DNA of 45,504 bases from Bacteroidales bacterium (GTDB lineage Bacteria; Bacteroidota; Bacteroidia; Bacteroidales; Azobacteroidaceae): positions 1 through 45,504 of the forward strand of contig JAVBLO010000087.1 of NCBI GenBank assembly GCA_031553415.1. The letters are read 5' to 3'. Positions 1 through 24,777 of the stretch are shown one piece after another. Made by a program: the position numbers and the translations under genes. Position 1 is the first letter of the stretch, and each line of letters opens with the position of its first letter. The notes below the pieces were generated by a model. The model was not told the DNA's origin. It saw only the letters and a list, made by a program, of their open reading frames with translations, and did no database searches.

Positions 1-203
1 ACGTCATCAATGGTAACGAACCGGTTCAATGTGCCGGAAAAGCCGTTACGGGTCACCATGTTGAGGTTGCCGTTGAGGTCGTATCCCAGCCTTTCGTTGT
101 AACCGCCATGTGCCACAGACCAATCCTCTCCTTCAAAATAAGTTGAGTTCTCCAACCGGTGCAAGCCGTCATAACGGAACGAATAGCCCCGTCTAACCGT
201 CGT
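1..203 (-). pseudogene. 5'-truncated duplicate of the Rhs core (paralog fragment continuing beyond the window start)
   Basis: Positions 1-203 match 3329-3531 of the intact rhs gene with only 4 mismatches (~98% identity). Minus-strand translation gives RGYSFRYDGLHRLENSTYFEGEDWSVAHGGYNERLGYDLNGNLNMVTRNGFSGTLNRFVTIDD, 2 substitutions versus the intact gene. Homology stops abruptly at 203, where the 175-bp repeat begins. No N-terminal part is present. Confidence 0.6.
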
Positions 204-375
204 TTGCTGTGCATTGCGCTCGGCAGAAGCTCTGCTTCTGTCGTTGCTAAAAGTAAATCTCCCGATTTATATATTTGTGAAGCGGAGCTTCACTTCTAAC
301 CCGACGAAGTTAGAAACTTCGCCGAGCGCGTACTCCATTAGCCTACATTGAGCAGGGGAAAATGTTAATAAACAA
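201..375. repeat. 175-bp structured repeat, copy A (direct repeat of 9721-9894)
   Basis: Aligns base-for-base with 9721-9894: ~90% identity over the first ~105 nt, ~65% over the remainder. It contains a 13-bp stem (224-236 GAAGCTCTGCTTC / 277-289 GAAGCGGAGCTTC) enclosing a nested 6-bp stem (TAAATC / GATTTA). Confidence 0.8.
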
Positions 376-425: not shown

Positions 426-800
426 TTATTTGATTTCTTTTCTCGAACTTCTGAGCATTAACATTAACAATGTGGATAATAAAATATTTAAAATCGGTAC
501 TACAAGAAATATTACAGTCCAATTGTTTCCATGCGATTCAAGAACAAATAACACACAGAGAAAAATCAATGATACAACAGAGTACAATAATAATGAAATA
601 CTCAACAATAAAACAATTTTTCTATTCTTAAGCCACAATAAAAATGAAACAATTATAAGACAAATACTTAACACCAAGAAAGAGGACATTACATAATTGT
701 ACACCAGCCAAACTCTCAACTCATTCAGTAATAACAGAACACCTTGCAACAACCACCAAACGAATGAAATAACTATAATTTTGTCATTTAACCACTTCAT
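426..800 (-). CDS. small multi-TM membrane protein, putative immunity protein for the adjacent orphan Rhs-CT toxin
   Basis: 124-aa ORF, last gene of the minus-strand array, 5 bp downstream of the orphan toxin ORF. The product is strongly hydrophobic with about 3-4 predicted TM helices. The region is very AT-rich and low-complexity, so the ORF could be spurious; a competing 88-aa plus-strand ORF is less plausible. Confidence 0.35.
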   Translation of the reverse strand: MKWLNDKIIVISFVWWLLQGVLLLLNELRVWLVYNYVMSSFLVLSICLIIVSFLLWLKNRKIVLLLSISLLLYSVVSLIFLCVLFVLESHGNNWTVIFLVVPILNILLSTLLMLMLRSSRKEIK

Positions 801-805
801 GGATG

Positions 806-1405
806 TTATCTCTTTATGTAAATTCCATTTGAATTATTTGTCCTTATGGCTTTAAACGATTCACTTGGAAGCCAAGAGTTATAAACCTTAGGAGGGGTGG
901 AAATAAAAGCATCTGTTTCTCTTCTAGTTATTGATGTATTTATTCCTACCGCATTCAGAGACCTTTGAACAGTAGTGGCACAATTGTTCGAGATAATACT
1001 ATAATTTTCATTTGTACTGATATCAGTAAAGGTGCTTCTTATAATGTTATCTTGTTCTGGTGTTGTTGGCAAAATATATCCTTCTGTAAAACCGTAGTTA
1101 TTAACCTCATTATCTTTGACTTGTTGCTTATTTCCTTCCGCATTGTAAGTACTCTCTAAAAATTCTTGAGGACTGTTAAATGTTTTTTCTCCCATATCAT
1201 GGTATGATTTACCTCCAAGCATACCTCCGGTTGCATTATAAACCCAGTCTCCATTCATTGAATAATATTGCCATTTCCCAGCATCATTTTGAATTAGCAT
1301 AGCTGAATGTTCTCCCTCATTGAGATTAAGAACAGTCACGCTATCTCCCCTTAAATCGATATTCCGGATAGGGTTATTTGCACATTGTGTATATAACATT
1401 GCCAT
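806..1405 (-). CDS. orphan Rhs C-terminal toxin module (retains end-of-core motif; unknown toxin domain, possibly permuted papain-like His...Cys)
   Basis: N-terminus MAMLYTQCANNPIRNIDLRGD parallels the end of the intact Rhs core ...YVYCANNPVNLIDPDGM. The rest is unrelated to the main toxin tip. It contains GEHSAML ... NNCATTV, a His-then-Cys order reminiscent of LRAT/NlpC-P60 permuted papain folds. Composition is AT-rich. Confidence 0.6.
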   Translation of the reverse strand: MAMLYTQCANNPIRNIDLRGDSVTVLNLNEGEHSAMLIQNDAGKWQYYSMNGDWVYNATGGMLGGKSYHDMGEKTFNSPQEFLESTYNAEGNKQQVKDNEVNNYGFTEGYILPTTPEQDNIIRSTFTDISTNENYSIISNNCATTVQRSLNAVGINTSITRRETDAFISTPPKVYNSWLPSESFKAIRTNNSNGIYIKR

Positions 1406-1422
1406 ACAAACATAATCTCCAA

Positions 1423-1965
1423 TTATTCTATTATATTTTCAAACTGCACCGAACTTCCCAAATATCGAGGGGCAAAAACTGTATCAGGTCTCAAATTTAC
1501 CTCCAAATTTCCTAATTCATTGTAGTAAAAATAAATGGAACGAAATATAAATAATTCTGAAGAGTTTTTTATTATCCATCCATTAGTTAGTTTTATGCTG
1601 TCAGGTTCATTCTTAATAATCCATTGGCTTTTTTCGGATACTATCAATTCATCAATAGAAGAAACATAAAAAACACGTTTATCCAAAATATCAAAATAAA
1701 ATGTTGGATTACTTTCTTCTATGAGAGATTTATAGCCAGGACCCAATAAAAAACCTTGTCGAGTAGGAACTTTTTCATTTTGCTCAAGTCCTTGGGTTGA
1801 TTTTATGAAAAAAGTATTAAATTGTGGATGTTCTTCTATGTAAGTCCCGATTACATTCTTTACATCAGCATGTAAATTTAATTCTTTGCAAAATTTTCTT
1901 TCTTGCTTACATGAAACAGTCATGAGCATCCCTAATACAACAACAAAGGATATTAAATATTTCAT
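1423..1965 (-). CDS. lipoprotein, putative cognate immunity protein of the Rhs C-terminal toxin
   Basis: 180 aa. Lipoprotein signal peptide MKYLISFVVVLGMLMTVSC. Starts 4 bp after the rhs stop, the canonical toxin-immunity arrangement. AT-rich like the toxin tip. Confidence 0.6.
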   Translation of the reverse strand: MKYLISFVVVLGMLMTVSCKQERKFCKELNLHADVKNVIGTYIEEHPQFNTFFIKSTQGLEQNEKVPTRQGFLLGPGYKSLIEESNPTFYFDILDKRVFYVSSIDELIVSEKSQWIIKNEPDSIKLTNGWIIKNSSELFIFRSIYFYYNELGNLEVNLRPDTVFAPRYLGSSVQFENIIE

Positions 1966-1968
1966 AAT

Positions 1969-4900
1969 CTACTGCCCTATTGATGGATATGTTCTCAACC
2001 AAGGAACTAATAATGTTTTTCCTGATAACAAATTATCTCTACTTCCCAATCCAGGAATAGACCTAAATCCCTCTCCTTTTACAGACCAAAATACACCATG
2101 AACCTTTCCATCATGACCTATTGTCATAATTGGAAGTCCTCCCATTGCCCTAGAATGACCAACATCGCCTCCGCTCTTGCCTGTAAAAGATGGTGTAGCA
2201 TCCTTTGACGCATCTTGATGGGTATGTACATTCCCTGTAATCTTAAATGTTTCCCCATCCTTGGTTGTGAGTTTTCCATCTTTAACAGAATATTGATATT
2301 TGCTTGGACTTGCATCATCAGCTTTATTTTTATAATCAGGTATAACTAAAATATTTCCATTTGCTAATGGATATCCACTTTCTTCGATTTTCTTCTCTGT
2401 TGCTTGTGACCACATTCGATTATATGCATCCGTTTCATTAGTGAACATAATACTACCATCCTTTCTATATGTTCCCGTCCCATATTTTACTGTCTCCCCT
2501 GCATATTTTTGATTTTCGCCTAGTTTGGAATCTTTTGTAACATTGGGGTCGTATTGTAGTGAGCGGTTCTTTTTATCATCGTTATTTATCCAATACCAAT
2601 CCATGCCATCAGGATCTATTAGGTTCACTGGGTTATTCGCGCAATAAACATACGGACTTATGCTGTAATACTTTTCGCAAAGCGGGTCCATTGTAAGAAA
2701 GCCACCCAGCGGGGAATAATATCCCCTTGCCACGAAATCATACTGATCCAACCCGAACATCCTGTCCAGTTCCTTCCCCCCGAACTTGTAGGGCTGGAAT
2801 TCCCGGTCGTTACGCCTCGGGGATTCTGCCATTACCGAACCGAAAGGGTAATAGTTCGTCACCTGGAAAGTTGTGCCCCACATGTCGAACACAACCCGGT
2901 TGTTACCCAGATGGTCTTTCAGAAAAAAGGTATGGTCGCCTGTCCCGTCATACCGGCAATACCCCTCTTCCGTGAGTACCATCGTCAGGTCTTCCCCCTG
3001 GTAAACCTTGTTACCGCAATAGGTCTTTTCCGTTTCCAAATAATTGTTCCTGTAGTGGCCCATCCTCAGTTTCCTGCCCGAAGCGTCATACACGTAACGG
3101 ATGTCGTTCCCATTGGCAAAGGTAATCTTTTGCGGCAGGTTCAACAAATTATATTCTATGCTTGTGATCCCACGGTTCTTGTCGGATGTCATGTTCCCGT
3201 TGGTATCATAGGTGTATTCGACACTGCCCCCGTTCACGTCCCTGAATTCCATCAAATCGTTAGAAGTGCCGTTGGATGCCATGTCCACCACCTCCTGCAA
3301 CCGGTTACCGTTGCGTTGCACAACATATACGTCATCAATGGTAACGAACCGGTTCGATGTGCCCGAAAAGCCGTTACGGGTCACCATGTTGAGGTTGCCG
3401 TTGAGGTCGTATCCCAGCCTTTCGTTGTAACCGCCATGCGCCACAGACCAATCCTCTCCTTCAAAATAAATTGAGTTCTCCAACCGGTGCAAGCCGTCAT
3501 AACGGAACGAATAGCCCCGTTGAAGAGCGGGTTTGTCCGCCGATTTCCAGCGGATGGCGGAAATATTCCCCGAATAATATACCTTTCCCGAAGGGTCGGG
3601 GTTGTTCGTGTAGAACAACTCTTCTGTGAATTTCGGGGAGGAGATTTTCGTCTGCCAGCCACGGATATTGTAATCGTAACCGGTTGATTCGTTGTATACC
3701 TTTTTGGAGGCGATCCTTCCCCAACCGTCATAAGTATGCCGGGAGAGGGGTATTTCAGGGTTTCCCTGTCCCGGGTTCAATTCATGGTAGGTATTCAGCA
3801 CCCTGCCTGCCCGGTCGTAGGTATAGCGGTACAATTCCGACACCCCATAGGCAAATCCCCCCCCGTCATGGTCGAGGTGTCTTTTATGGGGCAGTCCTGT
3901 AAAGGTATACGATATGGTTTCCCTGTCGTATCCGTTTGTTATATTGCTGGATACGGCTTGCACCACCCGACCCTTGTCGTCATAATAGGAGGCGGACAGC
4001 AGGTAAGTCGAATAATCGTCGAACACCAGCGTCCGGCTCCCGGTCAGCAATCCCTTGGCGGCAACCGGATCGCCGTCCGTCCCATGCCTTTTGTCATTGA
4101 ATCCTGCGGGAAGCAGGTAATCGAGATGGGTATTCGAACGGAAATGGGTCGTCTGTTTGAACAGGTAGTTGTCATAGTAATTGGCAGTTAATAATTTGGC
4201 ATCGGTGAAAGAAACCCCGGAAACGGTGTAGCCCGTCCCCAGGAAATTGTCGCCGGAGTCGGCGGAGAACACAGCCTTCACCACCGCACCGGAGTGTATG
4301 ACCGGGTTTTTGCAGGTACCTTTAAGCACCATCCGACCGAACTCGTCGGGGATCGTGAAGGTATATTCCGACCTGCTACTCTGTACGCTTTCACGAAAGA
4401 TGATCAACCGGTCGGCCTTGTCGTATTGCATCGTCGTTCCGCCCTGTCCCGGAAGCTTTTTCGCAATACACCTTTTCCAGTCATCGTACGAATAGTAATA
4501 CACATATTTGTTGATGACATCGGAGGTGATGGTCCATGATGAGTTTGTATTGAGCAGGGAAGCCGCCATGGGAGGAATCACAAAGCGTAACAGGCCGAAA
4601 TCATCATAAACGTAATAAGTGTCGTGGTTCCGGTTTTGTGACACCTGCCTTGTCAGTAACAGCTGACCCTGCGTGTCCTTGAATTCATACGACTCCTCCC
4701 CGTCTTCCCCCGTGGTTTTGGTCACATAAAGGGTGTTGGATGCGTAGTTCCCTTCTTTCTTCAAGGTATGTGAGGGCAGTACCCGGTACAGGTTGCAGTT
4801 GAGCCGTGTGTCTGCCGATATGTTGAACAGGTATTCGGTTTTGACTGCCTTGCCGTTATCATGCCACTCCTGTCCCGGCCCGAACTGTTGCAGGACGCGC

Positions 4901-5271
4901 TCAAGGGGGGAAGATTCATAGACCGTTTCGGAATAGGGCGCCCGGTCGCCGTTGATTTCCCCGGCTTTGCGGTATATATCACGGACATAGGCCCCGTTGT
5001 TGCCGGCCACGGGCGTGGGGAGGTACTGCCGCCATTCCCTGCCGAACCAGTCATATTCGGTTGCCGTCACTATGTCCTGCCCCTGTCCCCCGGCCCCTTT
5101 TTGTACCGTCTGCACGGGACGTCCCAGACCGTCGAAATAACGGATGGTTTCCATGTACTCCGTCCCGGATTCATTGGTCATCGTGCGCGTTTGGATATAA
5201 TTGCCGGAGGACTGGGGAAACACCGGGAACTGCAAGATTGAAAGCGCCGCTATGATGATATGCTGTTTCAT
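1969..5271 (-). CDS. rhs: Rhs/YD-repeat core protein (TcC-like) with Sec signal peptide and polymorphic C-terminal toxin domain
   Basis: 1100 aa. N-terminal signal-like MKQHIIIAALSILQFPVFPQ. Numerous YD repeats (YDxxGRL-like, e.g. YDGWGRI, YDASGRKL, YDGLHRL). The core ends with ...SPYVYCANNPVNLIDPDGM, the PxxxxDPxGL-type autoproteolysis motif, at about 2601-2615. The final ~210 aa (1969-2601) are AT-rich and contain no Cys. Confidence 0.88.
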   Translation of the reverse strand: MKQHIIIAALSILQFPVFPQSSGNYIQTRTMTNESGTEYMETIRYFDGLGRPVQTVQKGAGGQGQDIVTATEYDWFGREWRQYLPTPVAGNNGAYVRDIYRKAGEINGDRAPYSETVYESSPLERVLQQFGPGQEWHDNGKAVKTEYLFNISADTRLNCNLYRVLPSHTLKKEGNYASNTLYVTKTTGEDGEESYEFKDTQGQLLLTRQVSQNRNHDTYYVYDDFGLLRFVIPPMAASLLNTNSSWTITSDVINKYVYYYSYDDWKRCIAKKLPGQGGTTMQYDKADRLIIFRESVQSSRSEYTFTIPDEFGRMVLKGTCKNPVIHSGAVVKAVFSADSGDNFLGTGYTVSGVSFTDAKLLTANYYDNYLFKQTTHFRSNTHLDYLLPAGFNDKRHGTDGDPVAAKGLLTGSRTLVFDDYSTYLLSASYYDDKGRVVQAVSSNITNGYDRETISYTFTGLPHKRHLDHDGGGFAYGVSELYRYTYDRAGRVLNTYHELNPGQGNPEIPLSRHTYDGWGRIASKKVYNESTGYDYNIRGWQTKISSPKFTEELFYTNNPDPSGKVYYSGNISAIRWKSADKPALQRGYSFRYDGLHRLENSIYFEGEDWSVAHGGYNERLGYDLNGNLNMVTRNGFSGTSNRFVTIDDVYVVQRNGNRLQEVVDMASNGTSNDLMEFRDVNGGSVEYTYDTNGNMTSDKNRGITSIEYNLLNLPQKITFANGNDIRYVYDASGRKLRMGHYRNNYLETEKTYCGNKVYQGEDLTMVLTEEGYCRYDGTGDHTFFLKDHLGNNRVVFDMWGTTFQVTNYYPFGSVMAESPRRNDREFQPYKFGGKELDRMFGLDQYDFVARGYYSPLGGFLTMDPLCEKYYSISPYVYCANNPVNLIDPDGMDWYWINNDDKKNRSLQYDPNVTKDSKLGENQKYAGETVKYGTGTYRKDGSIMFTNETDAYNRMWSQATEKKIEESGYPLANGNILVIPDYKNKADDASPSKYQYSVKDGKLTTKDGETFKITGNVHTHQDASKDATPSFTGKSGGDVGHSRAMGGLPIMTIGHDGKVHGVFWSVKGEGFRSIPGLGSRDNLLSGKTLLVPWLRTYPSIGQ

Positions 5272-5282
5272 GTCTTTTATTG

Positions 5283-8200
5283 TTATTTTTGATAATGATA
5301 CTTATAAGTTTCTATCACCCGCCCGTCGTTGTCCTTCAGTTCCCGCAGCCTCAGGAAATCGTCATACTCGAAGGCTTGCCTGGCGCCTCCGGGGTTGGTG
5401 ATGGCTTTGAGTCCCACCAGCGGTTCATAAGAAAAGGAGGTGGCGACCGCCCTGGGCAACCCTGTTTGCAACAGGCCGTTGTCCAGGCTGTTGGGTGACG
5501 AGTTCACGGTGAATTGTTCTGGTGTCATGCCCAGGCATACGCCCACCTGTTCGTAAGTGGCCCCCTTGATTTCGGCCAAAGGGGAATTTACCAGTTTGTT
5601 CCACAGGTAAATAACCCTGATGGAATCATCCTGGGTAATATGCACCGGATTCCCGTAAGCATCATAGTTGTGGTATCGTATCCTCTCCCTTGGCGCAGCG
5701 CTGTTGGTTTGTGAGGATATTTTCCAGGGGAACACGCCCGTGGGGAACACCTTGTAGCCGGCATGCACGGTGGTTGCCATGCTGCCTTTCGTCACGGATT
5801 CTTTCAGCAGCGTCCCGATTCTCCAACGGCTATCGGACATCAACTGCTTCCGGGCAGTTTCTTCTTCACCGGACAATACCAGGTCGTGTGGATAGTAACG
5901 GCGGACATCCAGCTGTTTGCCGTCGCTGGCCGTCGTCCTGATACGGGTTGGATAGAGCAGCACTGGGTTATTGTATTCATACGAGGTTTCCGTTTCCAGG
6001 CTCTTTTTCCCCCGGGAGTCGAATTGGACACGGTATTCGTTGGATAGCCGGAGGCAGCCGCTGTAGATTTCGTAAGGGTGGTGTACAAGTTCCTCCAAAT
6101 AAGTCCTGCTAAAGCAAGCGGTTTCATCGGGGTCAGGGTCATATACTCGTGTTTTTTGTTCCACTTTCCCCACCGGTATGTCTTTCCTGTTATATGTGGA
6201 ATACCAATAATGCACACTATCTACAGGTACCAACACCCCATTGTCTACCTTGTAGTTGCTGCATGACACCAGCTTCCCTTTCAGCCAGTCCGCCTTGGGG
6301 TCCAAAGTGATGGAGGTTCCGGGAACCCTGTGAGTATTATACTCCAGGTCATAGTTGAGGCCGTATTGATACCTGGTCAACCCCGCTTTCTCCATCTCAT
6401 CTTCCGAATGGTAAACGTGTTTATATTCACTGACCCATTCATACAGCACAGGTGCACCTCCCGCATGGGACAGGTTGATGACGGGGGAAGAACTGTAAGT
6501 GCGTGAACGGAATTGGTCAAAATAATCCGCAGCATAATCTATAAACGCCCCCCCAATATAAAGTCTTTTCCATTTTACATACAAGTTTTCCCGTTCCACC
6601 ATATAATCATCGATGTCAGGTATTTTCCTGGGGATTCCATATCCGTTCCCATCCAATCCGTAGGAGAATTCCTTAAAGACATGCTGGAGATTGGTGTTGT
6701 CTATCTCCCTGATTTGATGTATCCTTAATCCCCCTGCCAGTTTTGGGGTGTCATGTTCATAATCATAATACCGGTTTGCCTGGTAGAAAAACATGGTTTC
6801 CCCTCCGGTGGGATAAATGATTTTGGTCAACACCCCGGCCTGCATGTATTCTTCATCGGGTTCTTTTGAGGCGCTTCCGATCGTTGTCATCCGGTGATAC
6901 CCCCACCCGCCGGGAAGTCCGACGCTTACCTCGGCCAGGGGGACGGCGCTTTGGCTGCCGTCATTGGCCGTACCGTTGTAATACCCCCAATGGTCGGTGT
7001 TTTTATCAATAACGGAGGGCATGGGGATTTGAGTGTTGTATTCAAACCGGTACCGTTCCTCCACTTTTCCCTGCCGGTCAAGGATTTGCAGGGAGTCGAG
7101 TTTATATCTTCCTACTCCACCCAATACCGGAAGGAAACAGTTCTGGAAAAACCGGATTTCGCGCACGGTGTTACCTGAATTGCCACAGACTTTGATGGAG
7201 TTCAGCATCCTGCCCCCATCTACTTTGTGTATGATTTCAAACTTGACAATTCCCGCAGAAAACCTGATCTCCTTCACTTTCCTCATTAAAACAGAATGGT
7301 TCGACAGGTAGTATCTCCCATCGGCAAGGTCAGCATGATCATTGTATTCCCGGAAAATGCTCTCATCCCCATCATGAAGTATTTGAAATATCTCGAAACA
7401 ATTGCTTATCCTGGTCTTCTTTACAGGGAGGAAATACGATACGGGTTCATGATTTGTATAAAGAAATTCATAAACCGGATGCTCTAATAATGTGACATAA
7501 TCCGTCTGGCAGAAAGTCGTTTCCCAAATCGGTTCGTGGTATGAAAAGGATATCTGCCTACCGCTTATCCCTGATCGCATCTTACTCGCTTTCCAGGCGG
7601 TTGAAACAGTTTGGTGGGGATTGGGGACATAGGTGGAAAGTTCGGAATTTTCATATGGGAACTCATAATGAATCCCTTTTTCATCAGTGATGTTGAAGTC
7701 CGGGTTGAGATTGAAATTGGAAATTATTTTCAATGGCTCATAGGGATGAGGCACTATGATGGCCGTATCCCGGGTCCGGGGTTGCCTGCTATAGTAAAAG
7801 GAGCCTGTCTTGTCTGCCAGTTTGTAATGGAAGTCGTCAGGTTCTTCATCTTCCAGGCCGTCAACTATTCTCAACAAGTAGAGGTTTTCATGTTCATTAT
7901 AGCCTAAATTTTGAGAATTTGTCCTCAAATATCCCCTATCGTCGGCTACCCCATTGATATTACTAGAAATGAACGGCTCAGCATTCAGCGTCCAGCCCAA
8001 TCCGACCCACCCGTTGGGCTCGTTCACCTTGATTCCGGAAGAATGGTAGCTCAAGGTGATGGGAAGCTTTAAATCGCCATCCTGTATTTCGTAAAGGGGG
8101 ATTTCTATCCGGACAAGCCCCGTGCCGTAATTCACCGGGTAATTGATATACTTTGCCAGTGAAGCCGCTTCGGGGGAAACAGGTGTAATCCTCGGAAAAT

Positions 8201-8378
8201 CGGTTGTTAACTGTGGTTGGGTGGAAGATGATCTGAGCATCATCCGGGTCGTGTCATGGGGAAACGGGACCAGGGAATCGATGCTTGTGAATACAACTTG
8301 CGCCTGTGTGTTCAAAAGAATGAAACACGGGAGCAATGCAAGGATAGTTTTCATAATGAATATAAGTCTGTTCGTCAT
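5283..8378 (-). CDS. SpvB/TcB-like protein with Sec signal peptide, C-terminal YD repeats (B-component-like partner of the Rhs core)
   Basis: 1031 aa. Likely true start is the internal MKTILALLPCFILLNTQAQ (signal peptide). The SpvB-domain hallmark PVNYGTGLVRIEIPLYEIQDGDLKLPITLSYHSSGIKVNEPNGWVGLGWTLN compares with TcB's LSLPLPIS...FTLNYNSG...GLGWD. It ends with YD-repeat-like ...FEYDDFLRLRELKDNDGRVIETYKYHY. Its stop lies 11 nt upstream of the rhs ATG, in a different frame. Confidence 0.75.
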   Translation of the reverse strand: MTNRLIFIMKTILALLPCFILLNTQAQVVFTSIDSLVPFPHDTTRMMLRSSSTQPQLTTDFPRITPVSPEAASLAKYINYPVNYGTGLVRIEIPLYEIQDGDLKLPITLSYHSSGIKVNEPNGWVGLGWTLNAEPFISSNINGVADDRGYLRTNSQNLGYNEHENLYLLRIVDGLEDEEPDDFHYKLADKTGSFYYSRQPRTRDTAIIVPHPYEPLKIISNFNLNPDFNITDEKGIHYEFPYENSELSTYVPNPHQTVSTAWKASKMRSGISGRQISFSYHEPIWETTFCQTDYVTLLEHPVYEFLYTNHEPVSYFLPVKKTRISNCFEIFQILHDGDESIFREYNDHADLADGRYYLSNHSVLMRKVKEIRFSAGIVKFEIIHKVDGGRMLNSIKVCGNSGNTVREIRFFQNCFLPVLGGVGRYKLDSLQILDRQGKVEERYRFEYNTQIPMPSVIDKNTDHWGYYNGTANDGSQSAVPLAEVSVGLPGGWGYHRMTTIGSASKEPDEEYMQAGVLTKIIYPTGGETMFFYQANRYYDYEHDTPKLAGGLRIHQIREIDNTNLQHVFKEFSYGLDGNGYGIPRKIPDIDDYMVERENLYVKWKRLYIGGAFIDYAADYFDQFRSRTYSSSPVINLSHAGGAPVLYEWVSEYKHVYHSEDEMEKAGLTRYQYGLNYDLEYNTHRVPGTSITLDPKADWLKGKLVSCSNYKVDNGVLVPVDSVHYWYSTYNRKDIPVGKVEQKTRVYDPDPDETACFSRTYLEELVHHPYEIYSGCLRLSNEYRVQFDSRGKKSLETETSYEYNNPVLLYPTRIRTTASDGKQLDVRRYYPHDLVLSGEEETARKQLMSDSRWRIGTLLKESVTKGSMATTVHAGYKVFPTGVFPWKISSQTNSAAPRERIRYHNYDAYGNPVHITQDDSIRVIYLWNKLVNSPLAEIKGATYEQVGVCLGMTPEQFTVNSSPNSLDNGLLQTGLPRAVATSFSYEPLVGLKAITNPGGARQAFEYDDFLRLRELKDNDGRVIETYKYHYQK

Positions 8379-8400: not shown

Positions 8401-9519
8401 TTAATGTATTTTCAAGATTTTCGCCCCGACAGGATAGTCATCGAACCACATATTGAGGACATATTCGCCCGGAATAAATGGGGACATGGGGATTGACAGG
8501 TGATGGACGCCCGCAGCCAGGGCTCCGTAACTCCGTTGCCACAAAATCTTTCCCATCCGGTCACCCAACTGCATCCTGACCTGCCCGGTTCCAGGCATGT
8601 AAATCTCCGCTTCAAGGTTCGTGACCACGGGATTGGGATAGAAATTATATGTCAGGCCAGCCCAGGGACCTTCCGCACCGCTTACCCCCAAGGAAGGGTC
8701 TTCCCGGACAGACAGGTTTTCGACGTCTTCCACCGGGTAAACATGTTTCTTTGGTGGATAAAAGAAGGAGACTTCCTCAGGAAGAACAGTCTCATCATAT
8801 TGTGTCGTGGTGTTGCGTACGGTCTCAAAAATGGGGTAGCGGTATCCTTTTGCATACCAGCGGTATGTTTCGGTTTCATGTATCGGTAAGAGGGATAAGG
8901 CCCTGTCGATACTGTCGGAAGAAACAATGCTGTCAACCGTATCCCGACCGGCAAATGTGATGGGTCGTGACGTATCGGCCGTTTTCACGACAGTTCGCAC
9001 CCGTATCACGTGATGCAAGGTGTCCTTACCGGGAAGGATAAGCATCCCGAGTGCATCGGCATGGAAGGATAAAGTTCCCATTGAAGTGGTTTTTAACCGG
9101 TCGCAATATTTCCCCTTACCGGAAAAATAGCCATGTCCATAATCGCCATAACGGACAGGAAATTTCATTAACAACGCAGGTTGCCGGTATCTGAGCAATG
9201 TGGAGGCATTCTCAAATCCCCAGAATAACAGGGAATCTCCCGACAGGCAATAGTAATAGGAAGTTTCCCTTTCGGTTCCCACAACCAAAGAATCGTTTAA
9301 TGCATGGTAAGTGAGTTTGTACTCTTCTTCGGTTACCTTCAGCCGGCTGAAGTCCCAAAGTACATTCTCTCCCGAACGGCCGGGATCTTTGTACTCTACC
9401 TGTTGCCTGGTGATTTCATCACCTGCCCGGTACATGTTGTGCTTGTTTTGCAAGCTGTGTTGGGCAAACAAAGGAAATAACCCGGCAATGGAAAGGAATA
9501 ACGTGAGTTTTGTTTTCAT
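8401..9519 (-). CDS. secreted protein with T9SS C-terminal sorting domain, first gene of the Rhs operon-like array
   Basis: 372 aa. Signal peptide MKTKLTLFLSIAGLFPLFAQ. The C-terminal ~80 aa, ...FYPNPVVTNLEAEIYMPGTGQVRMQLGDRMGKILWQ...PGEYVLNMWFDDYPVGAKILKIH, fit the Por/T9SS CTD pattern (YPNP ... GxYxL ... KIxK). The N-terminal domain is unrecognised. Confidence 0.7.
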   Translation of the reverse strand: MKTKLTLFLSIAGLFPLFAQHSLQNKHNMYRAGDEITRQQVEYKDPGRSGENVLWDFSRLKVTEEEYKLTYHALNDSLVVGTERETSYYYCLSGDSLLFWGFENASTLLRYRQPALLMKFPVRYGDYGHGYFSGKGKYCDRLKTTSMGTLSFHADALGMLILPGKDTLHHVIRVRTVVKTADTSRPITFAGRDTVDSIVSSDSIDRALSLLPIHETETYRWYAKGYRYPIFETVRNTTTQYDETVLPEEVSFFYPPKKHVYPVEDVENLSVREDPSLGVSGAEGPWAGLTYNFYPNPVVTNLEAEIYMPGTGQVRMQLGDRMGKILWQRSYGALAAGVHHLSIPMSPFIPGEYVLNMWFDDYPVGAKILKIH

Positions 9520-9720
9520 AACACCATCTTAAAATTAAATAATAGTTTTATAAATTAACGTGAAACAGGTATTTTTTAATAAAAACAAAGAAAACTCACA
9601 ATTGTTTAATAAAAATATATGTTATTTAGCATAAAAATGAAAAAATGACTATCCTGTGATTATGGGTACGGAGGCAGTCATAACGTTTCTTAGGAAGCGA
9701 TGAGCCCCTGTTCGCCGCAG

Positions 9721-9894
9721 TCTGCTGTGCGTTGCGCTCGGCAAAAGCTCTGCTTTTGTCGTTGTTAAAAGTAAATCTCCTGATTTACATACCTGTTGAA
9801 GCAGAGCTTCACTTCTAACTCGACATAGTGAAAGACATTATGCCGAACGCTATACTATCAGACTATGCTCAACAGGGGGTTACTGTAATAAATG
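9721..9894. repeat. 175-bp structured repeat, copy B
   Basis: Direct repeat of 201-375. It is preceded at about 9650-9720 by a degenerate remnant of the same rhs-core sequence that precedes copy A (gtcataacg...gcccc). The outer stem is conserved, with compensatory changes relative to copy A. Confidence 0.8.
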
Positions 9895-10015: not shown

Positions 10016-10519
10016 GTGGCTTTAAGCCACTGTATTACAAGTATGGCATCCCACTTAAGAAAAAGGTCAGATGCTAATACTTATGCCAAACAATACAGGA
10101 CATCAAGATCTGATTGTAAAAACTGCAAATTGCGACAAGAATGCATAGGAAAACGTGTCCATAAGTCTCTGGAAGACACTTTGGATAAACCTTATTATGA
10201 GAGAATGTACAAAAGGGTTAATACAAAGACGGGAGCAAAGATGATGAGAGTAAGGGCAGCTACAGTGGAACCGGTATTAGGAACATTACTCCATTTTGTT
10301 GGAATGAAGAAAGTTTATACCAAAGGGATTGATTTGGCGAACAAACATGTTCTGTTGGCTTCTACTGCTTATAATGTCAAGAAACTATTAAAGTTCAAGG
10401 GAATAGACAGTGGGATTAAATCAGTACTGAATGCTTGTATTAAAGGTAAAGATGGAATTCTTATCGTTATCACAGACTTAGCTGAACGGGGGAACTACAA
10501 TCTCACTGTTTATAATGAA
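10016..10519 (+). mobile_element. IS1182/IS5-like transposase, 5'-truncated C-terminal remnant
   Basis: The ORF (193 aa as listed) has the CKNCKLRQEC Cys motif and ...TVEPVLGTLLHFVGMKKVYTKGIDLANKHVLLASTAYNVKKLLKF, typical of the C-terminus of IS1182-family DDE transposases. The N-terminal ~250 aa, including the catalytic region, are absent. It is immediately right of repeat copy B. Confidence 0.6.
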
Positions 10520-10592
10520 GTCGGGGTACAAAGGTCTTGTAGTCGGAGTACAAAACATATGTACTCCGACTACAAGACCTTTGTACCCCGAC
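10520..10592. repeat. perfect palindrome: 32-bp arms (GTCGGGGTACAAAGGTCTTGTAGTCGGAGTAC) with a ~9-nt loop, at the 3' end of the transposase remnant
   Basis: Direct inspection: 10520-10551 is the exact reverse complement of 10561-10592. The listed ORF reads through it, which is probably artefactual. Confidence 0.85.
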
Positions 10593-10745
10593 TATAGAAA
10601 TTAAATGCTCTTAGCATCTGCTTCAAAAAGTAACTGATTCGGTTTTGTAAGACATAGAAATTATCAATTAACTTTGTAACCTGAATTTACTTTCCTGTGT
10701 CATATCTGTACAAACTAATTATTAACATTTTTATAAATACAGATT

Positions 10746-14041: not shown

Positions 14042-15106
14042 CTATTTGAGTTTCAAATCATTAAAAATATCTCTTGCTGCTGCAAAGTTATCATAAAGAT
14101 CCATTAAAGCATCGCCTGATGTAAGCGAAGATTTACCTAAAGTAAGGAAACCTTCGGGCATCGCAACGGAAAAGAAAAAGCGATCAGCATTGAATGAAAG
14201 CATGATATCGCGGTTGTATTTCTTTTTTAATTCTGTCATCCGGAGCATCATCGCCGGGGTAAGAATGTAGCGGGCAGTAATTTCATCGCTGGAATAAACG
14301 GCAAAATACCGTTCAAACTCTATATCTTCGAGTTTGACTAATTTATTACCATTCACATTTTTCAAACCCTGGATATTTTTGGCAAGATAATCAAGTTTGC
14401 TTTCCAAATGGTCGGGTAAAATAACCACAGTACCATTGATTTTCTTTTCCAATTGGGCATCTGCAAACATTCCACGGAAATCAGTTGCAATATTTTCCAC
14501 ACGTTTGGCAAATACTCCCTTGAAAAGAATTACTGCTATCTGAAACATGCCTGCTGTAGATGTTTGAGCCAGCCAGTTGCTTTTGGTTCCGCTTATGGAG
14601 ACGTCGCGGAAAGTCATTTTCCGGTTATTGTTTTCAAAAATAACTGTTCCGAAAGAATATCCTGAAGCGTATTCACGTTTCAATCCTCCGAAAAAGTTAC
14701 TTTGCATCATCAGTGACGTGGAGAAAGGAGCAGTAGTAAGATTACATTTGGCTTCGGGAAACATGGCCTGCATGATTCGCCGGATAGAAGTTTGCTCCGC
14801 ATCGGTGTATTTTTTATAAAAGTAACCCAATCCATATCCACCAAGGGTTATCAATATAAACAATGGGGCGATGATAATAAGCATTTTATACCTTTCCCAA
14901 AAAGAGGGATTGGGGTCTAAAGTATAAAAAAACGAAGTATCCCGGCTTGAATATATATAAACCTGCATTGCAATTAATCCAACAAAATAGAGTATTGCTC
15001 CGCCGTAGCAAAAAATCCGGGAAATCCTGATTTTTTTCTGGTTCTGTTCGGCTTTTTTCAATGTGGAATAAAGCTCTTGTTGCAGTTGCTCTATTTTTTC
15101 AGTCAT
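14042..15106 (-). CDS. LemA-associated membrane protein (DUF3137-like; two N-terminal TM helices)
   Basis: 354 aa. Starts 2 bp after the lemA stop. N-terminal coiled-coil plus two TM helices. The DUF3137 family assignment is from memory of typical LemA neighbours, not from a search. Confidence 0.45.
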   Translation of the reverse strand: MTEKIEQLQQELYSTLKKAEQNQKKIRISRIFCYGGAILYFVGLIAMQVYIYSSRDTSFFYTLDPNPSFWERYKMLIIIAPLFILITLGGYGLGYFYKKYTDAEQTSIRRIMQAMFPEAKCNLTTAPFSTSLMMQSNFFGGLKREYASGYSFGTVIFENNNRKMTFRDVSISGTKSNWLAQTSTAGMFQIAVILFKGVFAKRVENIATDFRGMFADAQLEKKINGTVVILPDHLESKLDYLAKNIQGLKNVNGNKLVKLEDIEFERYFAVYSSDEITARYILTPAMMLRMTELKKKYNRDIMLSFNADRFFFSVAMPEGFLTLGKSSLTSGDALMDLYDNFAAARDIFNDLKLK

Positions 15107-15108
15107 AG

Positions 15109-15702
15109 TTATCTATTGAACAGCGACTTGACATCAACATTAGCTTTTTCGGCTTCAGGAATGGTAATTAACTCATAAGGCTGATAATGCTTTGCGGAAG
15201 CAACAATAGAAGACGGAAACATTTGTACATAATTGTTAAAGTCCACTGCAGCAGCATTGAAAGTCCGCCGTGCTGCTTGCAACTGGTATTCCATATCTTC
15301 AATGGATTCTTCGAGACGGAGGAATTGGTCGTTGGCTTTCAGGTCAGGATAGTTTTCAACCGCTAATTTCACATTGGCAAGTGTCCGGGAAAGTTCAGAA
15401 CCTAATTGAATTTGTTCATGTTCATTTTTTGTTTGTAACATCTGGGAGCGCAATTCTGTAATTTTAACAAGTGTGGAGTTTTCATGTCCCATGTAGGTCT
15501 GCACTGCCGCCACCAAATTGGGAATCATGTCGTTCCGTTGTTTCAACATCACACAAATGCTGCTTTCAGTCTGTTTTACACGGTTGTTTTTAGCAATAAA
15601 TTTGTTGTAGGTAACGATAAACCAAAGTACGATAATAACGATTACCGCTGCGATAATAACTGTGCCTGTCATAAATAATATGTGTGTTATTTTGTTTGGC
15701 AC
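15109..15702 (-). CDS. lemA: LemA family protein
   Basis: 197 aa. N-terminal TM helix followed by the LemA-type sequence ...YNKFIAKNNRVKQTESSICVMLKQRNDMIPNLVAAVQTYMGHE... Confidence 0.8.
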   Translation of the reverse strand: MPNKITHILFMTGTVIIAAVIVIIVLWFIVTYNKFIAKNNRVKQTESSICVMLKQRNDMIPNLVAAVQTYMGHENSTLVKITELRSQMLQTKNEHEQIQLGSELSRTLANVKLAVENYPDLKANDQFLRLEESIEDMEYQLQAARRTFNAAAVDFNNYVQMFPSSIVASAKHYQPYELITIPEAEKANVDVKSLFNR

Positions 15703-15891
15703 AAAGATAGAAATACTTCATTTATATTCCAAACCTGTAGCCAATTCCCGGTTCGGTAATTAATAATGTCAGTGGGCAAACAGAGCCGATAATAGAGCGA
15801 ATATAGCCAGGAGCTACATAAAGGACCCATACATTGAGGCTTTTATGCGAATCTTTAGGTAAAATATTCAACCTGGACAGAATTTTGCCAT

Positions 15892-16836
15892 TTATGCCTT
15901 TTTACCCAAATTCCTTTGATGTTTCCAGAGTTGGTAAGAATTGACCAGATTTTGCCAGACAACATAAGTTGCAGGAGCTATAGCCACAAGCGGACTAAAA
16001 AAGGTATTGGCCATCCAGATAGCAAGGATGGTATTTTTTTGTCCGAGCCCCTGGCCTCCAACTATTTTATCTTTAAATCTTTTTCCTAAAATCCACCCGG
16101 TAAAAAATTGAAGCCAGCAAATGAAGCCAGCTCCCAATGCAATCCAAAGAATATGCATTGCAAGCCCTTGGTCTTCTTTTATTATTTCTATCAATTTTGT
16201 AGTGGTATTCGCCATGACGATAGTTAGAGCAATAGCCCATATCCAAAAAGAATATATTTGCTTGTTACGCAGTTGACTGTGCACTTTAGGTGTTGCTTTT
16301 TTCAAAATAAAAGCCAGGATAAAAGGCCCAAGCAACATAGGCATCACCTTGAGGCAAATAGTCAGAAATGTTTCGATGAAATTTAAATCTTCCCCTGTAG
16401 ATAATCCATGAGCGCCAATGGCAGAAAAAACACAAGGAGCAACGAAAGCCACAGATAGATTACTCAAAATGCTATATGTAGCCATGCCGGCAATGTTGCC
16501 GCCTAAAAGTCCTGTAATAACCACTGATGAGGTAGCTGTAGATGCCAGGATACAAAGCATACATCCTTCTGCCAGATCAGAACTGAAAGGTTTGAGTATA
16601 AAATAAACTAATAAACAGCCGATAAGTTGTACAACACCTAACCATAGATGAAGGGGTTCCGGCCAGAGATCACTTATAGATACCCTGCAATAGGTAATCA
16701 GAAGCATGAAGAAAAGAAGATATGGCGTAATAAAAAATATCTGCGAGATGAAACTATGGAAAATAATACCCACAATCATGCAGATAAAAAGCGCATTTGT
16801 TTTTAAGAATTTCAGGATGTTATTAACCTTGAACAT
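15892..16836 (-). CDS. polytopic membrane transporter, probably bile acid:Na+ symporter (BASS)-like
   Basis: 314 aa with about 9-10 TM helices. Size and topology fit the BASS family. Family assignment is weak. Confidence 0.45.
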   Translation of the reverse strand: MFKVNNILKFLKTNALFICMIVGIIFHSFISQIFFITPYLLFFMLLITYCRVSISDLWPEPLHLWLGVVQLIGCLLVYFILKPFSSDLAEGCMLCILASTATSSVVITGLLGGNIAGMATYSILSNLSVAFVAPCVFSAIGAHGLSTGEDLNFIETFLTICLKVMPMLLGPFILAFILKKATPKVHSQLRNKQIYSFWIWAIALTIVMANTTTKLIEIIKEDQGLAMHILWIALGAGFICWLQFFTGWILGKRFKDKIVGGQGLGQKNTILAIWMANTFFSPLVAIAPATYVVWQNLVNSYQLWKHQRNLGKKA

Positions 16837-16896
16837 TTTGCTTCCATCAAATTTGGCGCAAAGGTAGTTCTTTTAGGCGGATTTATTAATCATTAA

Positions 16897-17487
16897 TCAA
16901 TTTTTCCATAACCTTGTTTCTGTTTCATGCAAATGCAGGCGATATTTATGATAAAACGGTTCTATATAATGATAAAAGCCGGAATTAGGCCCGACTCCTT
17001 CTATAAATTCCAGGAAACCATCATTTCTGTCGTACATTAGTTCTAACCTGACATGCTTCCGGCCGTCTTCATAGTATATGGAGTCGACTAATGAAAAATA
17101 ACCCTTTTTATCTTTTTGCATCCCTTCATAATACTTGAAATATACCCAGTCGGGAAATCTGAAAACATCGCCTTCTTCCAAACTCATGTCAGAAATCAGG
17201 TATTCGTTTTCCATGTTATTGTCAAGAAGAAACAATTGTCCTTTATCCCTGTCTTCCCTCATATAAAAGAAGTAATTCCGGTCAAGGGCAATTTTTTTAT
17301 ACCACTTATCATTGATTTTAACCGGAGAATCCCCGATATTTATCACACCGTCTTTTTCGAAGTCGGCAATTTCGTAATGCACATGCCATTTGGTGTATCT
17401 TTCCCCAAAATAAGAGCAATAATTTTTTTGTGCGTGTGCGCCTTGCAAAAATATAATTGCAAGGCTTATTAATAAAATTTTTTGCAT
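16897..17487 (-). CDS. secreted hypothetical protein
   Basis: 196 aa. Signal peptide MQKILLISLAIIFLQGAHAQ. No recognisable domain. Confidence 0.5.
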   Translation of the reverse strand: MQKILLISLAIIFLQGAHAQKNYCSYFGERYTKWHVHYEIADFEKDGVINIGDSPVKINDKWYKKIALDRNYFFYMREDRDKGQLFLLDNNMENEYLISDMSLEEGDVFRFPDWVYFKYYEGMQKDKKGYFSLVDSIYYEDGRKHVRLELMYDRNDGFLEFIEGVGPNSGFYHYIEPFYHKYRLHLHETETRLWKN

Positions 17488-17500
17488 GGTGAAAATTAGT

Positions 17501-19699
17501 TTATAAATCTTCTCGCTTCCATGTTTTCAGCCGTTCCAAGTGAGTAAAAAGAGTTGTATCTGAGCCTTCAAGATAAACAATAGCATTGGGGTCAATATCT
17601 AAAAAAGCATCGGGGTCAATTATTATTCTACCTGAGCCTTTTATATATAATTTACCTCCATCCATGATTTTCAGGGTACTTCCCTTTTTGATTCTTAATT
17701 CGGCATTGGGATTTAGTTCATAAATGCTGTTTTTTTCAATTATGAGAGAGCTTCCCCGTTTCACTTTGACAATAGAATTTGTTTCTTGTTTAAAGTAAGA
17801 ATTTTCCCTGCAGTGAAATGCGGTTGGGTTGATAAAATTTCCTTCATCGTTATGGGTATGCCTGTTAGGAGTTCCACCTTTATCAATCGACAAGGCAATT
17901 CCTTCATTGATAACAATATCCGGCCTGTTATCTTGTGTTATATCCGGCAAATAAATAGTTCCGCAATAACGGATATTATTATTTATTATCACATCATTGA
18001 AAGTAATTTTTATTTTGGCATTGCCTTCTGCATCATAATCCAGGATTTTAACGGAAATGCCATTCAGGACAAATGGATTCAACCTGAATTCTTTTTCGTT
18101 ATATATAGGAACATTTACCAGTCCGGGGTTTGAATCCATAGACAATTTTTGATTTTTTTTGAAAGTAATATCATGTCCTAAAAAATCATAAGTAAATTCA
18201 TTATCTTTCATCCTGACAAAGCATCCTTCATTTTTTTTGCCGGGACGAATGCTGTTATAATGTGTATCTAAAGAAATAATCCCGTTGGAATCAAAATCAG
18301 CACGGATAACTTCAGCCCTGCTTTGTCCGGCAATAGGATTCGGCTCCACCTCTTTGAAACTGTATAATTTATGTTTCCTCCTGAAACAAGGATCTATAAA
18401 TGAAAGCCCGAATTCATAATCATGGCTGCCTTCCGGATGCAGGCATTGTATTCCATTGGTAGTTCCTATATTTCCCCAAACGAGATGAGGTTTTGTTTTA
18501 TCATCTTGTATGCTTTCAATATAAGCCACTATCCCCCATGAGTGTTGAGGTATTTCATTTTTACAGCCATCATATAAAATAGAACTTTTATCAAAAATAG
18601 ATTTACCCTGATGGTTTTCCAACCATAAATAATGATTTTTAATCCCATTGCCGGGTATTTTTATCCTGATTATGTCGCCGGTCGTCATAAAATCCCTTAG
18701 AGTATATTCTCCGGAAGCATTTAAATCAGCTTCCTTTTTAATATCTGCATTTTCCCCATTGGCCTTAATACTATTAATCCAATCGAGATACCATTTTTCC
18801 CAACCTAATACACACAAAAACGGGGAGAAATTTAACGACATCATACCCCACCCCAGATTACCATAAAAATAATCACCTACGAGTTCATTGGCATAAGCAT
18901 AATGAGGACATTCAAAAATACTGTGTGCAATTTCATGGATGAATAAATGGAAAAAGTCTACGGAGGCCGAAGTCTGGGTAAATCCGCTTTGGTCGAAAAT
19001 ATAGCCGTTGAAGTCTATACCTGTTGTTCCATCCAATATGGCATATCCTCCATTGGAACCTCCCCAAGCGTCTATGTTATGTACAGGTTTTTGAATCATC
19101 TTATTGTGACTCCGGTATATGACAATAATGTAATCCGGTTTTTTATCAGGAGAATACAAACTGGCATCTTTTCTGTAAGAAGGCCTGTTTTCCCTCAGGT
19201 CGTATCTTGACCAATCAAAACCGGGATTTTCTTCTTTCAGCTTTTCGATTACCCTTCTGTTCAGTTGGCTCCAACTGCTGGCTCCACTTGCATCAATATT
19301 TATCCTTTTGGGATATACATCAGCAATCAACCTGAATTTTGAATGCGACATCTGGTAATAAAAGTATGATACATTTTTATCCTGATTTGCAAGAGGGCGT
19401 TCTGAAAAATCAGAAAAATCAGACAAAAAAGTGGATTTATCCTTTAATTTATCAGGAATAGCATCAGGCTCTTTACTCCAGCCTTGCATTTCAAAATTAT
19501 CGTATGGTTCACCGAATCCAGCGCAGATCACCAAAACTCTGAGGTCTCCTTTCGGAGTTAGAACATTTCCATATCCGGAATAAAATCCGGTTTTTCCCAC
19601 CTTTGAATCGGTATTTTGATTATAGTACGCATTCAATTGTTCTGTTTCAATGGTTAGGGCGGCAATTAATAATTGCCAGTAAAGGTTTAAGCTTTTCAT
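17501..19699 (-). CDS. large secreted protein with HExxH zinc-metallopeptidase motif
   Basis: 732 aa. Contains FIHEIAHSIFECPHY. The C-terminal third is rich in beta-helix-like repeats (IKKGSTLKIMDGGKLYIKGSGRIIID...). Confidence 0.5.
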   Translation of the reverse strand: MKSLNLYWQLLIAALTIETEQLNAYYNQNTDSKVGKTGFYSGYGNVLTPKGDLRVLVICAGFGEPYDNFEMQGWSKEPDAIPDKLKDKSTFLSDFSDFSERPLANQDKNVSYFYYQMSHSKFRLIADVYPKRINIDASGASSWSQLNRRVIEKLKEENPGFDWSRYDLRENRPSYRKDASLYSPDKKPDYIIVIYRSHNKMIQKPVHNIDAWGGSNGGYAILDGTTGIDFNGYIFDQSGFTQTSASVDFFHLFIHEIAHSIFECPHYAYANELVGDYFYGNLGWGMMSLNFSPFLCVLGWEKWYLDWINSIKANGENADIKKEADLNASGEYTLRDFMTTGDIIRIKIPGNGIKNHYLWLENHQGKSIFDKSSILYDGCKNEIPQHSWGIVAYIESIQDDKTKPHLVWGNIGTTNGIQCLHPEGSHDYEFGLSFIDPCFRRKHKLYSFKEVEPNPIAGQSRAEVIRADFDSNGIISLDTHYNSIRPGKKNEGCFVRMKDNEFTYDFLGHDITFKKNQKLSMDSNPGLVNVPIYNEKEFRLNPFVLNGISVKILDYDAEGNAKIKITFNDVIINNNIRYCGTIYLPDITQDNRPDIVINEGIALSIDKGGTPNRHTHNDEGNFINPTAFHCRENSYFKQETNSIVKVKRGSSLIIEKNSIYELNPNAELRIKKGSTLKIMDGGKLYIKGSGRIIIDPDAFLDIDPNAIVYLEGSDTTLFTHLERLKTWKREDL

Positions 19700-19837
19700 A
19701 GTAAGTTGATTTTTGAAATATGTTTTCTCTCTCTCTATAAAGGAAACAAGGACTTACAGAAAAAGGTTTTATCAATAATGGTTAATTAATTCTAAAAACA
19801 GATATTCAAAACGGGCACGATTTGAACCGGCTAAAAT

Positions 19838-24670: not shown

Positions 24671-24777
24671 AGGTATTTATATAAAAAGAATTATCGGAAG
24701 TTATTAGAATTCAACCGGGAGTTACCGGAATAAATTCTCCTGATAAATTCCGATAACTTCTGATTAAATTCCAAAAA

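Follow-up and report, generated by a model that had tools for sequence, protein, structure and literature searches.

Orphan arrays of rhs genes have been described in Salmonella, Escherichia coli, Dickeya and Serratia. In these arrays, a full-length rhs gene whose core ends in a PxxxxDPxG-type motif carries a variable tip coupled to an immunity gene and is followed by further tip-immunity pairs in which part of the core is retained; AT-rich tips contrast with a GC-rich core, and the displaced tips are found on full-length Rhs proteins elsewhere. Another described system, Tox-Act1, is an effector of the Salmonella SPI-6 type VI secretion system (T6SS): this permuted NlpC/P60 toxin, missed by standard hidden Markov models (HMMs), must reach the periplasm to be toxic, generates lysophospholipids by cleaving phosphatidylglycerol and phosphatidylethanolamine, causes lysis of cells that keep their rod shape and has an immunity protein with two transmembrane (TM) helices (PMC12994826). 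The present analysis concerns a stretch of 45,504 nucleotides from a Bacteroidales bacterium (contig JAVBLO010000087.1, hereafter the window), in which an rhs gene is followed by several small AT-rich open reading frames (ORFs). This locus is almost certainly an Rhs orphan array. The explanation that best fits the whole, and that we consider probable, is that it comprises the 3′ end of an Rhs operon and displaced cassettes, one of which, a 199-aa ORF, would encode an orphan tip acting as an envelope phospholipid hydrolase and paired with an immunity protein of four TM segments.

All the properties of the known arrays listed above are found in this locus. It differs from them in being of the Bacteroidota DUF6443-RHS type, with a Sec signal peptide and an N-terminal partner of 1031 aa encoded separately, and in that the core DNA left in its middle orphan does not suffice for recombination, a third element alone having enough. 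The likeness to CdiA-CT/CdiI orphan arrays is organisational only: no feature of contact-dependent inhibition (CDI) systems (CdiA, CdiB or VENN) was found, DUF6443 and RHS repeats are all that the carrier proteins match, and the window is not a CDI locus. All the genes of the array and of the operon are on the minus strand. Those that carry the argument are:

2602..5271, minus strand: body of rhs (signal peptide, DUF6443, RHS/YD repeats and Rhs-associated core ending in NNPVNLIDPDGM)
1969..2601, minus strand: resident rhs tip (rhs aa 891-1100 and the stop codon)
1423..1965, minus strand: ORF of a predicted 180-aa lipoprotein (N-terminus MKYLISFVVVLGMLMTVSC)
806..1405, minus strand: 199-aa ORF read as an orphan (displaced) Rhs tip (start MAMLYTQCANNPIRNIDLRGD)
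426..800, minus strand: 124-aa ORF with four predicted TM segments

The original prediction, made from the sequence alone, had placed these ORFs correctly, and its gap of 5 bp between the orphan ORF and the 124-aa membrane ORF was recovered; the gap between rhs and the lipoprotein ORF, given as 4 bp, measures 3 nt. The lipoprotein ORF stop and the start of the 199-aa ORF are 17 nt apart. The rhs gene (1969-5271) encodes a protein of 1100 aa that matches the Pfam models DUF6443 (E 3.8e-39) and RHS_repeat (E 6.3e-15), and the Rhs_assc_core model TIGR03696 covers aa 807-890. Its core end reads YVYCANNPVNLIDPDGM at aa 874-890, the last part of which occupies aa 879-890 as in the list above. The gene therefore combines YD/RHS repeats with an associated core that has a PxxxxDPxG-type end, as in full-length Rhs proteins.

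Several lines of evidence indicate that the 199-aa ORF is a displaced Rhs C-terminal toxin tip, as judged from its homologues. A word-indexed search retrieved 32 relatives, 38-100% identical to it, several of which are annotated as RHS repeat-associated, and many of them carry a genuine Rhs core end before the domain (PYKYNGKE...ARYYDP..GRF.S.DPLAEKYY..SPYAYC.NNPI.NID..GDS). In two alignments (A1 and A2), the first 21 residues of the orphan align to the last part of this core end, and P12, D17 and G20 of the remnant are invariant or nearly so. It had been noticed earlier that the start of the orphan mimics the last core motif of the intact rhs gene; these alignments show that the resemblance is due to homology and not to chance. 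The remnant (residues 1-21) retains about 17 residues of the core end (LYTQCANNPIRNIDLRGD) and is followed by a domain of about 178 residues (about 22-199). The in-frame stretch KYNRIIGDYVC that precedes the orphan ATG was considered as an additional piece of core and set aside, since it shares nucleotides with the 3′ end of the lipoprotein gene and resembles the core only weakly.

The distribution of the domain in other genomes points in the same direction. An exhaustive profile search yielded 201 clusters (at 50% identity) of orphan-domain relatives at E ≤ 1e-30, and the domain is C-terminal in 132 of the 146 best matches listed that fit the toxin-only profile, in proteins of up to 2030 aa. 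The 29,389 weak matches obtained in a representative search fall mostly in the columns of the Rhs core end and were excluded as toxin relatives. The comparison of the frames at 101 fetched genomic and metagenomic loci revealed that the orphan domain lies either in Rhs-sized frames (940-2206 aa) or in short orphan frames (mostly 240-470 aa). The 1129-aa frame of locus L025 bears a tip 68% identical to that of the window; other Rhs-sized carriers are present in L030, L037, L045 and L060 (1075-2078 aa) as well as in L047, L048 and L051, and the seven long carriers scanned are all DUF6443-RHS proteins. Similarity of the 199-aa ORF to the C-termini of other Rhs proteins, whose absence would have spoken against the original prediction, is thus found, including in full-length ones (L025, L030, L037, L045 and L060). 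The toxin family occurs for the most part in Bacteroidales, and the nearest relatives come from Bacteroidales metagenome-assembled genomes and from gut or insect-gut metagenomes. Many relatives are small shell-less proteins, apparently self-exported, whose domain carries a fused Sec signal peptide. In P0062, P0068, P0104 and P0151, this peptide is set directly on the last 10-20 core residues and the domain; among these four proteins and P0041-P0043, some join the Sec signal to the toxin through a conserved domain of about 60-70 aa.

The 124-aa ORF, whose hydrophobic segments in a Kyte-Doolittle scan cover residues 8-26, 37-55, 68-86 and 96-114, is the predicted cognate immunity gene of the orphan tip, as suggested by its conserved position. 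The seven closest tips (55-68% identical; L022, L023, L025, L026, L027, L029 and L033) all have an ORF of 118-128 aa directly downstream, 47-59% identical to the 124-aa ORF (BLASTP E 4e-18 to 1e-33). The conservation of this ORF behind homologous tips, on which the pairing proposed earlier depended, is therefore complete among the closest tips. Its wider family includes 34 non-redundant proteins, in which Y73 is conserved in all 34, N105 in 32, S74 in 31, and W16 and Q19 in 25 each. Downstream ORFs were clustered by BLASTP with default statistics, composition correction and a coverage filter. Among the 90 related loci where a downstream ORF was found, this ORF belongs to a family of small predicted membrane proteins (53-153 aa) in 78 and encodes, in six, a protein of about 240 aa whose N-terminus bears a hydrophobic segment resembling a signal anchor or a lipoprotein start. 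The other partner families include proteins of 81-94 aa with mostly three TM segments (17 loci) and a Muribaculaceae-type family, also with mostly three (10 loci), and two smaller membrane families follow some tips of the orphan-domain family too. The immunity partners of the toxin family thus fall into at least four unrelated families of small membrane proteins plus a lipoprotein-like family. Two tandem paralogous membrane ORFs follow a single tip in L004 (6666-7433), L007 (1903-2712) and L008 (6666-7268).

The first cassette, made of the resident tip and the lipoprotein ORF, shows the same joint inheritance. The resident tip is predicted, from its model, to be a metallopeptidase toxin of JAB/MPN fold. 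It resembles Tox-JAB/Toxin-JAB1 (PF15659) by this predicted fold, by a candidate E...HxH motif and by its C-terminal position in a Bacteroidales DUF6443-RHS protein. It differs in that the Pfam Toxin-JAB1 model does not match it: searched against Pfam Toxin-JAB1 and Prok-JAB, the resident tip was unmatched or gave one weak match through a family member. It would belong to a JAB-like family separate from Toxin-JAB1 and paired with the 180-aa lipoprotein; true Toxin-JAB1 tips are present in neighbouring loci. The 180-aa ORF encodes a signal peptide followed by Cys19 and has 13 relatives that lie, wherever flanks are available, directly after a homologue of the resident tip or, in L105, after a remnant consisting of its last 31 residues. 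The tip and lipoprotein homologues are respectively 78% and 71% identical to those of the window in L102-L104, and 65% and 62% identical in L106. Furthermore, L106 and L102 carry the pair in orphan position, after another Rhs whose tip is Toxin-JAB1. This provides direct evidence that tip and immunity gene move jointly between resident and orphan positions, and the 180-aa lipoprotein is accordingly placed, by its gene context, as the predicted immunity protein of the resident JAB-like tip. Taken together, the core remnant, the fusions to full-length Rhs proteins elsewhere and the co-inheritance of tip and immunity gene at both cassettes bear out the displaced-tip and immunity organisation that had been proposed for this region. 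None of the 180-aa, 199-aa and 124-aa ORFs has a significant match to a curated family in Pfam or NCBIfam; weak matches of the small ORFs to 8xMP, PgsC and LolB1 were judged to be compositional or signal-peptide noise.

The orphan domain is very likely, on the strength of its predicted structure, a permuted Cys-His enzyme of the NlpC/P60 type. Its AlphaFold2 model has a mean predicted local distance difference test score (pLDDT) of 85.9 and a predicted template modelling score (pTM) of 0.82. The top structural match is TseH, a T6SS cysteine hydrolase of Vibrio cholerae (6v98; score 11.7, 132 residues, 2.6 Å), followed by YiiX (9.1), the YiiX-like peptidase 3kw0 of B. cereus (8.4), the Rho-inactivation acyltransferase domain of MARTX (6.7), PPPDE (5.9), CLN5 (4.8) and PLAAT4 (4.4). 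All these proteins are papain-like, and the closest ones are circularly permuted, with the His before the Cys. The model itself shows a papain-like alpha+beta fold in which C142 is predicted to open a helix (142-151) and H33 to lie just ahead of a strand (34-39), so that here too the His precedes a Cys placed at the start of a helix. Across 20-30 homologues, C142 and N51 do not vary, while the conservation of H33 is complete or at least 90%. The putative catalytic triad is H33/N51 (+18)/C142 (+109). Compared by residue numbers, its spacing matches that of the triads of TseH, H64/E81/C172 (+17, +108), and Lnb, H49/N66/C148 (PMC11573676), and of the catalytic residues H43/C151 of Tox-Act1 (PMC12994826). 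The sub-threshold Pfam matches, obtained with family members and with the family consensus, all fall in one superfamily: Lnb_N (best E 0.001 with the consensus, 19.1 bits for a cut-off of 22.2), PPPDE (0.02), TseH (0.061) and LRAT (0.22). A permuted papain-like hydrolase of the LRAT/NlpC-P60 type had been suspected from the order of the residues. The permuted NlpC/P60 fold is indeed predicted, with the domain nearer to TseH, YiiX and DUF4105 than to LRAT proper. According to these models, the family appears to be a distinct, unmodelled one in the TseH/Tox-Act1/DUF4105 branch.

Among the described members of this branch, Tox-Act1 is similar to the orphan tip in several respects: (i) a permuted NlpC/P60 Cys-His domain with a nearly equal His-to-Cys spacing, (ii) a sequence missed by standard HMMs, (iii) a distant kinship with DUF4105 and TseH, and (iv) a small membrane immunity protein. 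The comparison, made by published description, also reveals differences: Tox-Act1 is a stand-alone T6SS cargo of Enterobacteria whereas the domain of the window is a Bacteroidales Rhs tip, and Imm-Act1 has two TM helices whereas four are predicted in the 124-aa protein and the toxin family of the window has at least four unrelated immunity families. The TseH/TsiH pair of the V. cholerae T6SS (6v98) is distinguished by the fact that the Pfam TseH model reaches a best E of only 0.06-0.12 for the orphan family. Lnb of Bacteroides, a lipoprotein N-acyltransferase whose N-terminal periplasmic domain is DUF4105 (PF13387), is a housekeeping enzyme in which this domain is fused to five TM helices, unlike the soluble toxin tip.

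From these comparisons, a mode of action can be proposed. On a full-length Rhs, the domain would be freed from the shell and delivered into the envelope of a neighbour. There, working from the periplasm, it would most likely hydrolyse the acyl esters of membrane phospholipids, which would generate lysophospholipids and lead to lysis. Its neutralisation would take place at the membrane, through the small polytopic immunity protein. Action at the periplasmic face is suggested by the fold, by partners that are mostly tiny polytopic proteins and in some cases lipoprotein-like, and by the Sec-fused relatives; we regard an envelope or periplasmic site as likely. For the substrate itself, the chances that it is a phospholipid cleaved at its acyl esters stand about even. 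In this strain, the orphan would be an older tip severed from its Rhs shell that keeps a remnant of the core end, and its toxin would probably be a silent reserve, the immunity gene protecting against neighbours that bear the same tip.

Some results weigh against this reading. No Pfam model, including PF25218 (TseH), PF13387 (Lnb_N) and PF04970 (LRAT), passes its threshold on the orphan domain, and the A2 profile searched against PDB sequences matched only the end of the Rhs core (SGS4, 9on3) and a chance stretch of 34 residues. The folds of both the orphan tip and the resident tip are predictions, and a Foldseek comparison of the toxin model with the PDB, a check suggested by the original prediction, returned nothing significant (best E 0.78) and did not recover the TseH match. 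In its original description, TseH is a cell-wall hydrolase that causes cell rounding and bursting (PMC4453574). Lastly, the orphan has neither DNA homology to the resident rhs nor an export signal, and may therefore never be used.

The history of TseH leads to a different proposal for the substrate, in which the orphan tip cleaves peptidoglycan as an amidase or endopeptidase, the classical activity of NlpC/P60 enzymes, and the membrane protein holds or blocks the enzyme at the periplasmic face. In favour of this, TseH, the top structural match, is reported to have lysed permeabilised E. coli and to have rounded and burst V. cholerae (PMC4453574), and a few tips are paired with lipoprotein-like genes of about 240 aa, the usual style of immunity against periplasmic wall hydrolases. 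However, the permutation that puts the His before the Cys marks the lipid-directed branch (YiiX, LRAT/PLAAT, DUF4105/Lnb and Tox-Act1), TseH itself has phospholipase activity on liposomes, Tox-Act1-intoxicated cells lyse as rods (PMC12994826), and most immunity partners are tiny polytopic membrane proteins that offer very little periplasmic surface. A wall target is for these reasons unlikely. The best sub-threshold match, Lnb_N/DUF4105 around the Cys motif, could also indicate that the domain targets lipoproteins by removing or transferring their N-terminal acyl chains, which would make it the toxic equivalent of Lnb, the N-acyltransferase of Bacteroidota. Tox-Act1 is reported to form the sister clade of DUF4105, lipoproteins were raised by its authors as possible targets (PMC12994826), and the toxin family is found largely in Bacteroidales, which use Lnb. 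However, the Lnb_N matches stay below threshold and span only about 30 residues, and the only activities measured in this toxin branch are phospholipase activities, which makes lipoproteins a rather improbable target. It is equally doubtful that the tip family, instead of being a bulk phospholipase, is a toxic offshoot of the Lnb fold that strips or mis-transfers acyl chains on envelope lipoproteins or on another lipid-anchored molecule, with several unrelated families of tiny polytopic immunity proteins that would shield the substrate or trap the enzyme in the bilayer instead of plugging the active site.

Two further explanations concern the genes rather than the substrate. The 199-aa ORF could be an unused relic from which no active toxin is made in this strain, only the immunity genes of the array being under selection; we consider this a serious possibility, although the less probable one. 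Its core is cut to about 17 residues, it has no signal peptide and no Rhs shell, and the longest run shared at the core-tip motif, 8 nt, does not allow re-fusion by homologous recombination. A scan of positions 1-2100 detected no terminator-like site and a number of sigma-70-like promoter sites not above that of shuffled sequences, with a tool that does not model Bacteroidota promoters. On the other hand, the ORF is intact, keeps all the residues that are invariant in the family and has its ATG exactly at the truncation point, and its position 17 nt behind the upstream gene makes read-through transcription likely. The relic proposal concerns expression only and is compatible with the biochemical assignment. 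That the small ORFs are chance open frames is practically negligible as an explanation: AT-rich DNA does give many spurious ORFs and no curated family is matched by any of the three, but each has dozens of homologues, their order and spacing are conserved in independent genomes and metagenomes, and the toxin ORF gives a confidently predicted fold. The conserved synteny alone effectively refutes it already. For a displaced tip devoid of shell and export signal, a silent reserve beside a useful immunity gene remains the simplest interpretation.

The way in which such tips could be exchanged depends on the core DNA that they keep. The original prediction considered the CANNP motif of the orphan as a recombination handle. 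This motif is kept in the protein but its DNA counterpart has been lost: the longest run shared by the orphan and the resident rhs at the core-tip motif is AATAACCC, and a blastn search of the orphan 5′ region against the operon gave only chance words of 9-10 nt. In the absence of DNA identity, homologous re-fusion of the orphan to the resident rhs is implausible, and its core motif is the scar of a former fusion. The array extends beyond position 426, further than previously described, and reaches the edge of the window with a third element and a spacer repeat that has a copy upstream of the operon:

1..192, minus strand: third element of the array, a piece of rhs core that corresponds to rhs aa 584-646
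202..305, minus strand: structured spacer repeat directly in front of the third element, 88.6% identical to 9720-9824
9720..9824, minus strand: upstream copy of the structured spacer repeat, about 200 nt before the first gene of the operon

Positions 1-192 are 97.9% identical at the DNA level to 3329-3520, in the rhs core from aa 584 on (four mismatches in 192 nt). Their translation reads RGYSFRYDGLHRLENSTYFEGEDW..., in a frame that is open, has no nearby start codon and runs past the edge of the window. Because it offers at least 192 nt at 98% identity, this third element is the sole realistic substrate for homologous tip switching. At the window edge, a copy of the region upstream of the operon is followed directly by the rhs core from aa 584, and the third element looks like a second copy of the operon with an internal deletion. 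The two direct repeats could also remove the entire 9.5-kb operon. The spacer (195-430) has a minimum free energy of -77.4 kcal/mol (z = -5.09) and contains a long imperfect hairpin of about 115 nt. No Rfam family was found in a scan of the whole window, spacer repeat included, and the repeat is absent from the 106 fetched loci; it is a candidate structured RNA, repeat resembling miniature inverted-repeat transposable elements (MITEs) or regulatory leader.

Base composition separates the core from the cassettes. The GC content is 28.5% for the 124-aa ORF, 29.5% for the lipoprotein ORF, 34.7% for the orphan tip and 37.3% for the resident tip, compared to 51.8% for the rhs core and 38.5% for the remaining 36 kb of the window. 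At third codon positions, the GC fraction is 0.22-0.34 in the cassettes and 0.655 in the core, compared to 0.32-0.41 in housekeeping genes (purL, the topoisomerase gene and hcp). The contrast announced between AT-rich tips and immunity genes and a core GC-richer than the chromosome is therefore correct by both measures, and since the cassettes are AT-richer and the core GC-richer than the host, they depart from it in opposite directions.

Upstream of rhs, the operon includes two other genes:

5283..8378, minus strand: 1031-aa upstream partner ORF (from BLASTP)
8401..9519, minus strand: 372-aa ORF with a signal peptide, first in the operon

The operon encodes the 372-aa protein, for which no recognised family was found, the 1031-aa N-terminal partner and the 1100-aa DUF6443-RHS protein with its putative JAB/MPN-fold tip. 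The 1031-aa ORF matches the first 500-900 residues or so of P0105, P0112 and P0130 (BLASTP E 1e-13 to 7e-22), whose second halves are matched by the rhs of the window. By this similarity, the 1031-aa and 1100-aa pair appears to be a split version of the single-chain DUF6443-RHS proteins of about 2000 aa found in other genomes. A DDE transposase fragment (10016-10597, plus strand; PF13751, E 2e-16) abuts the upstream side of the rhs operon. No T6SS gene, including those for PAAR or VgrG, lies within the window, the rest of which is ordinary chromosome with hcp, purL, a topoisomerase subunit gene and an AMP-binding enzyme gene. A cluster on the minus strand (14042-26859) has at its centre a 1610-aa ATPase with DUF3686, DUF7902 and AAA domains (19838-24670). 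Its neighbours are a DUF3137 protein and large unannotated proteins of 732 and 693 aa, and the cluster may be an island devoted to defence or repair.

Since both Rhs orphan arrays and permuted NlpC/P60 toxins have already been described, the locus itself is no surprise. It provides a clean example of one cassette that is resident in one genome and orphan in another. This work adds an unmodelled family of Rhs tips, comprising about 200 clusters at 50% identity and widespread in Bacteroidales and related gut and insect-gut bacteria. It also supplies a compact set of toxin-immunity pairs suited to asking how a four-helix membrane protein neutralises a soluble Cys-His hydrolase, and whether lipid-targeting NlpC/P60 toxins operate in gut Bacteroidota.

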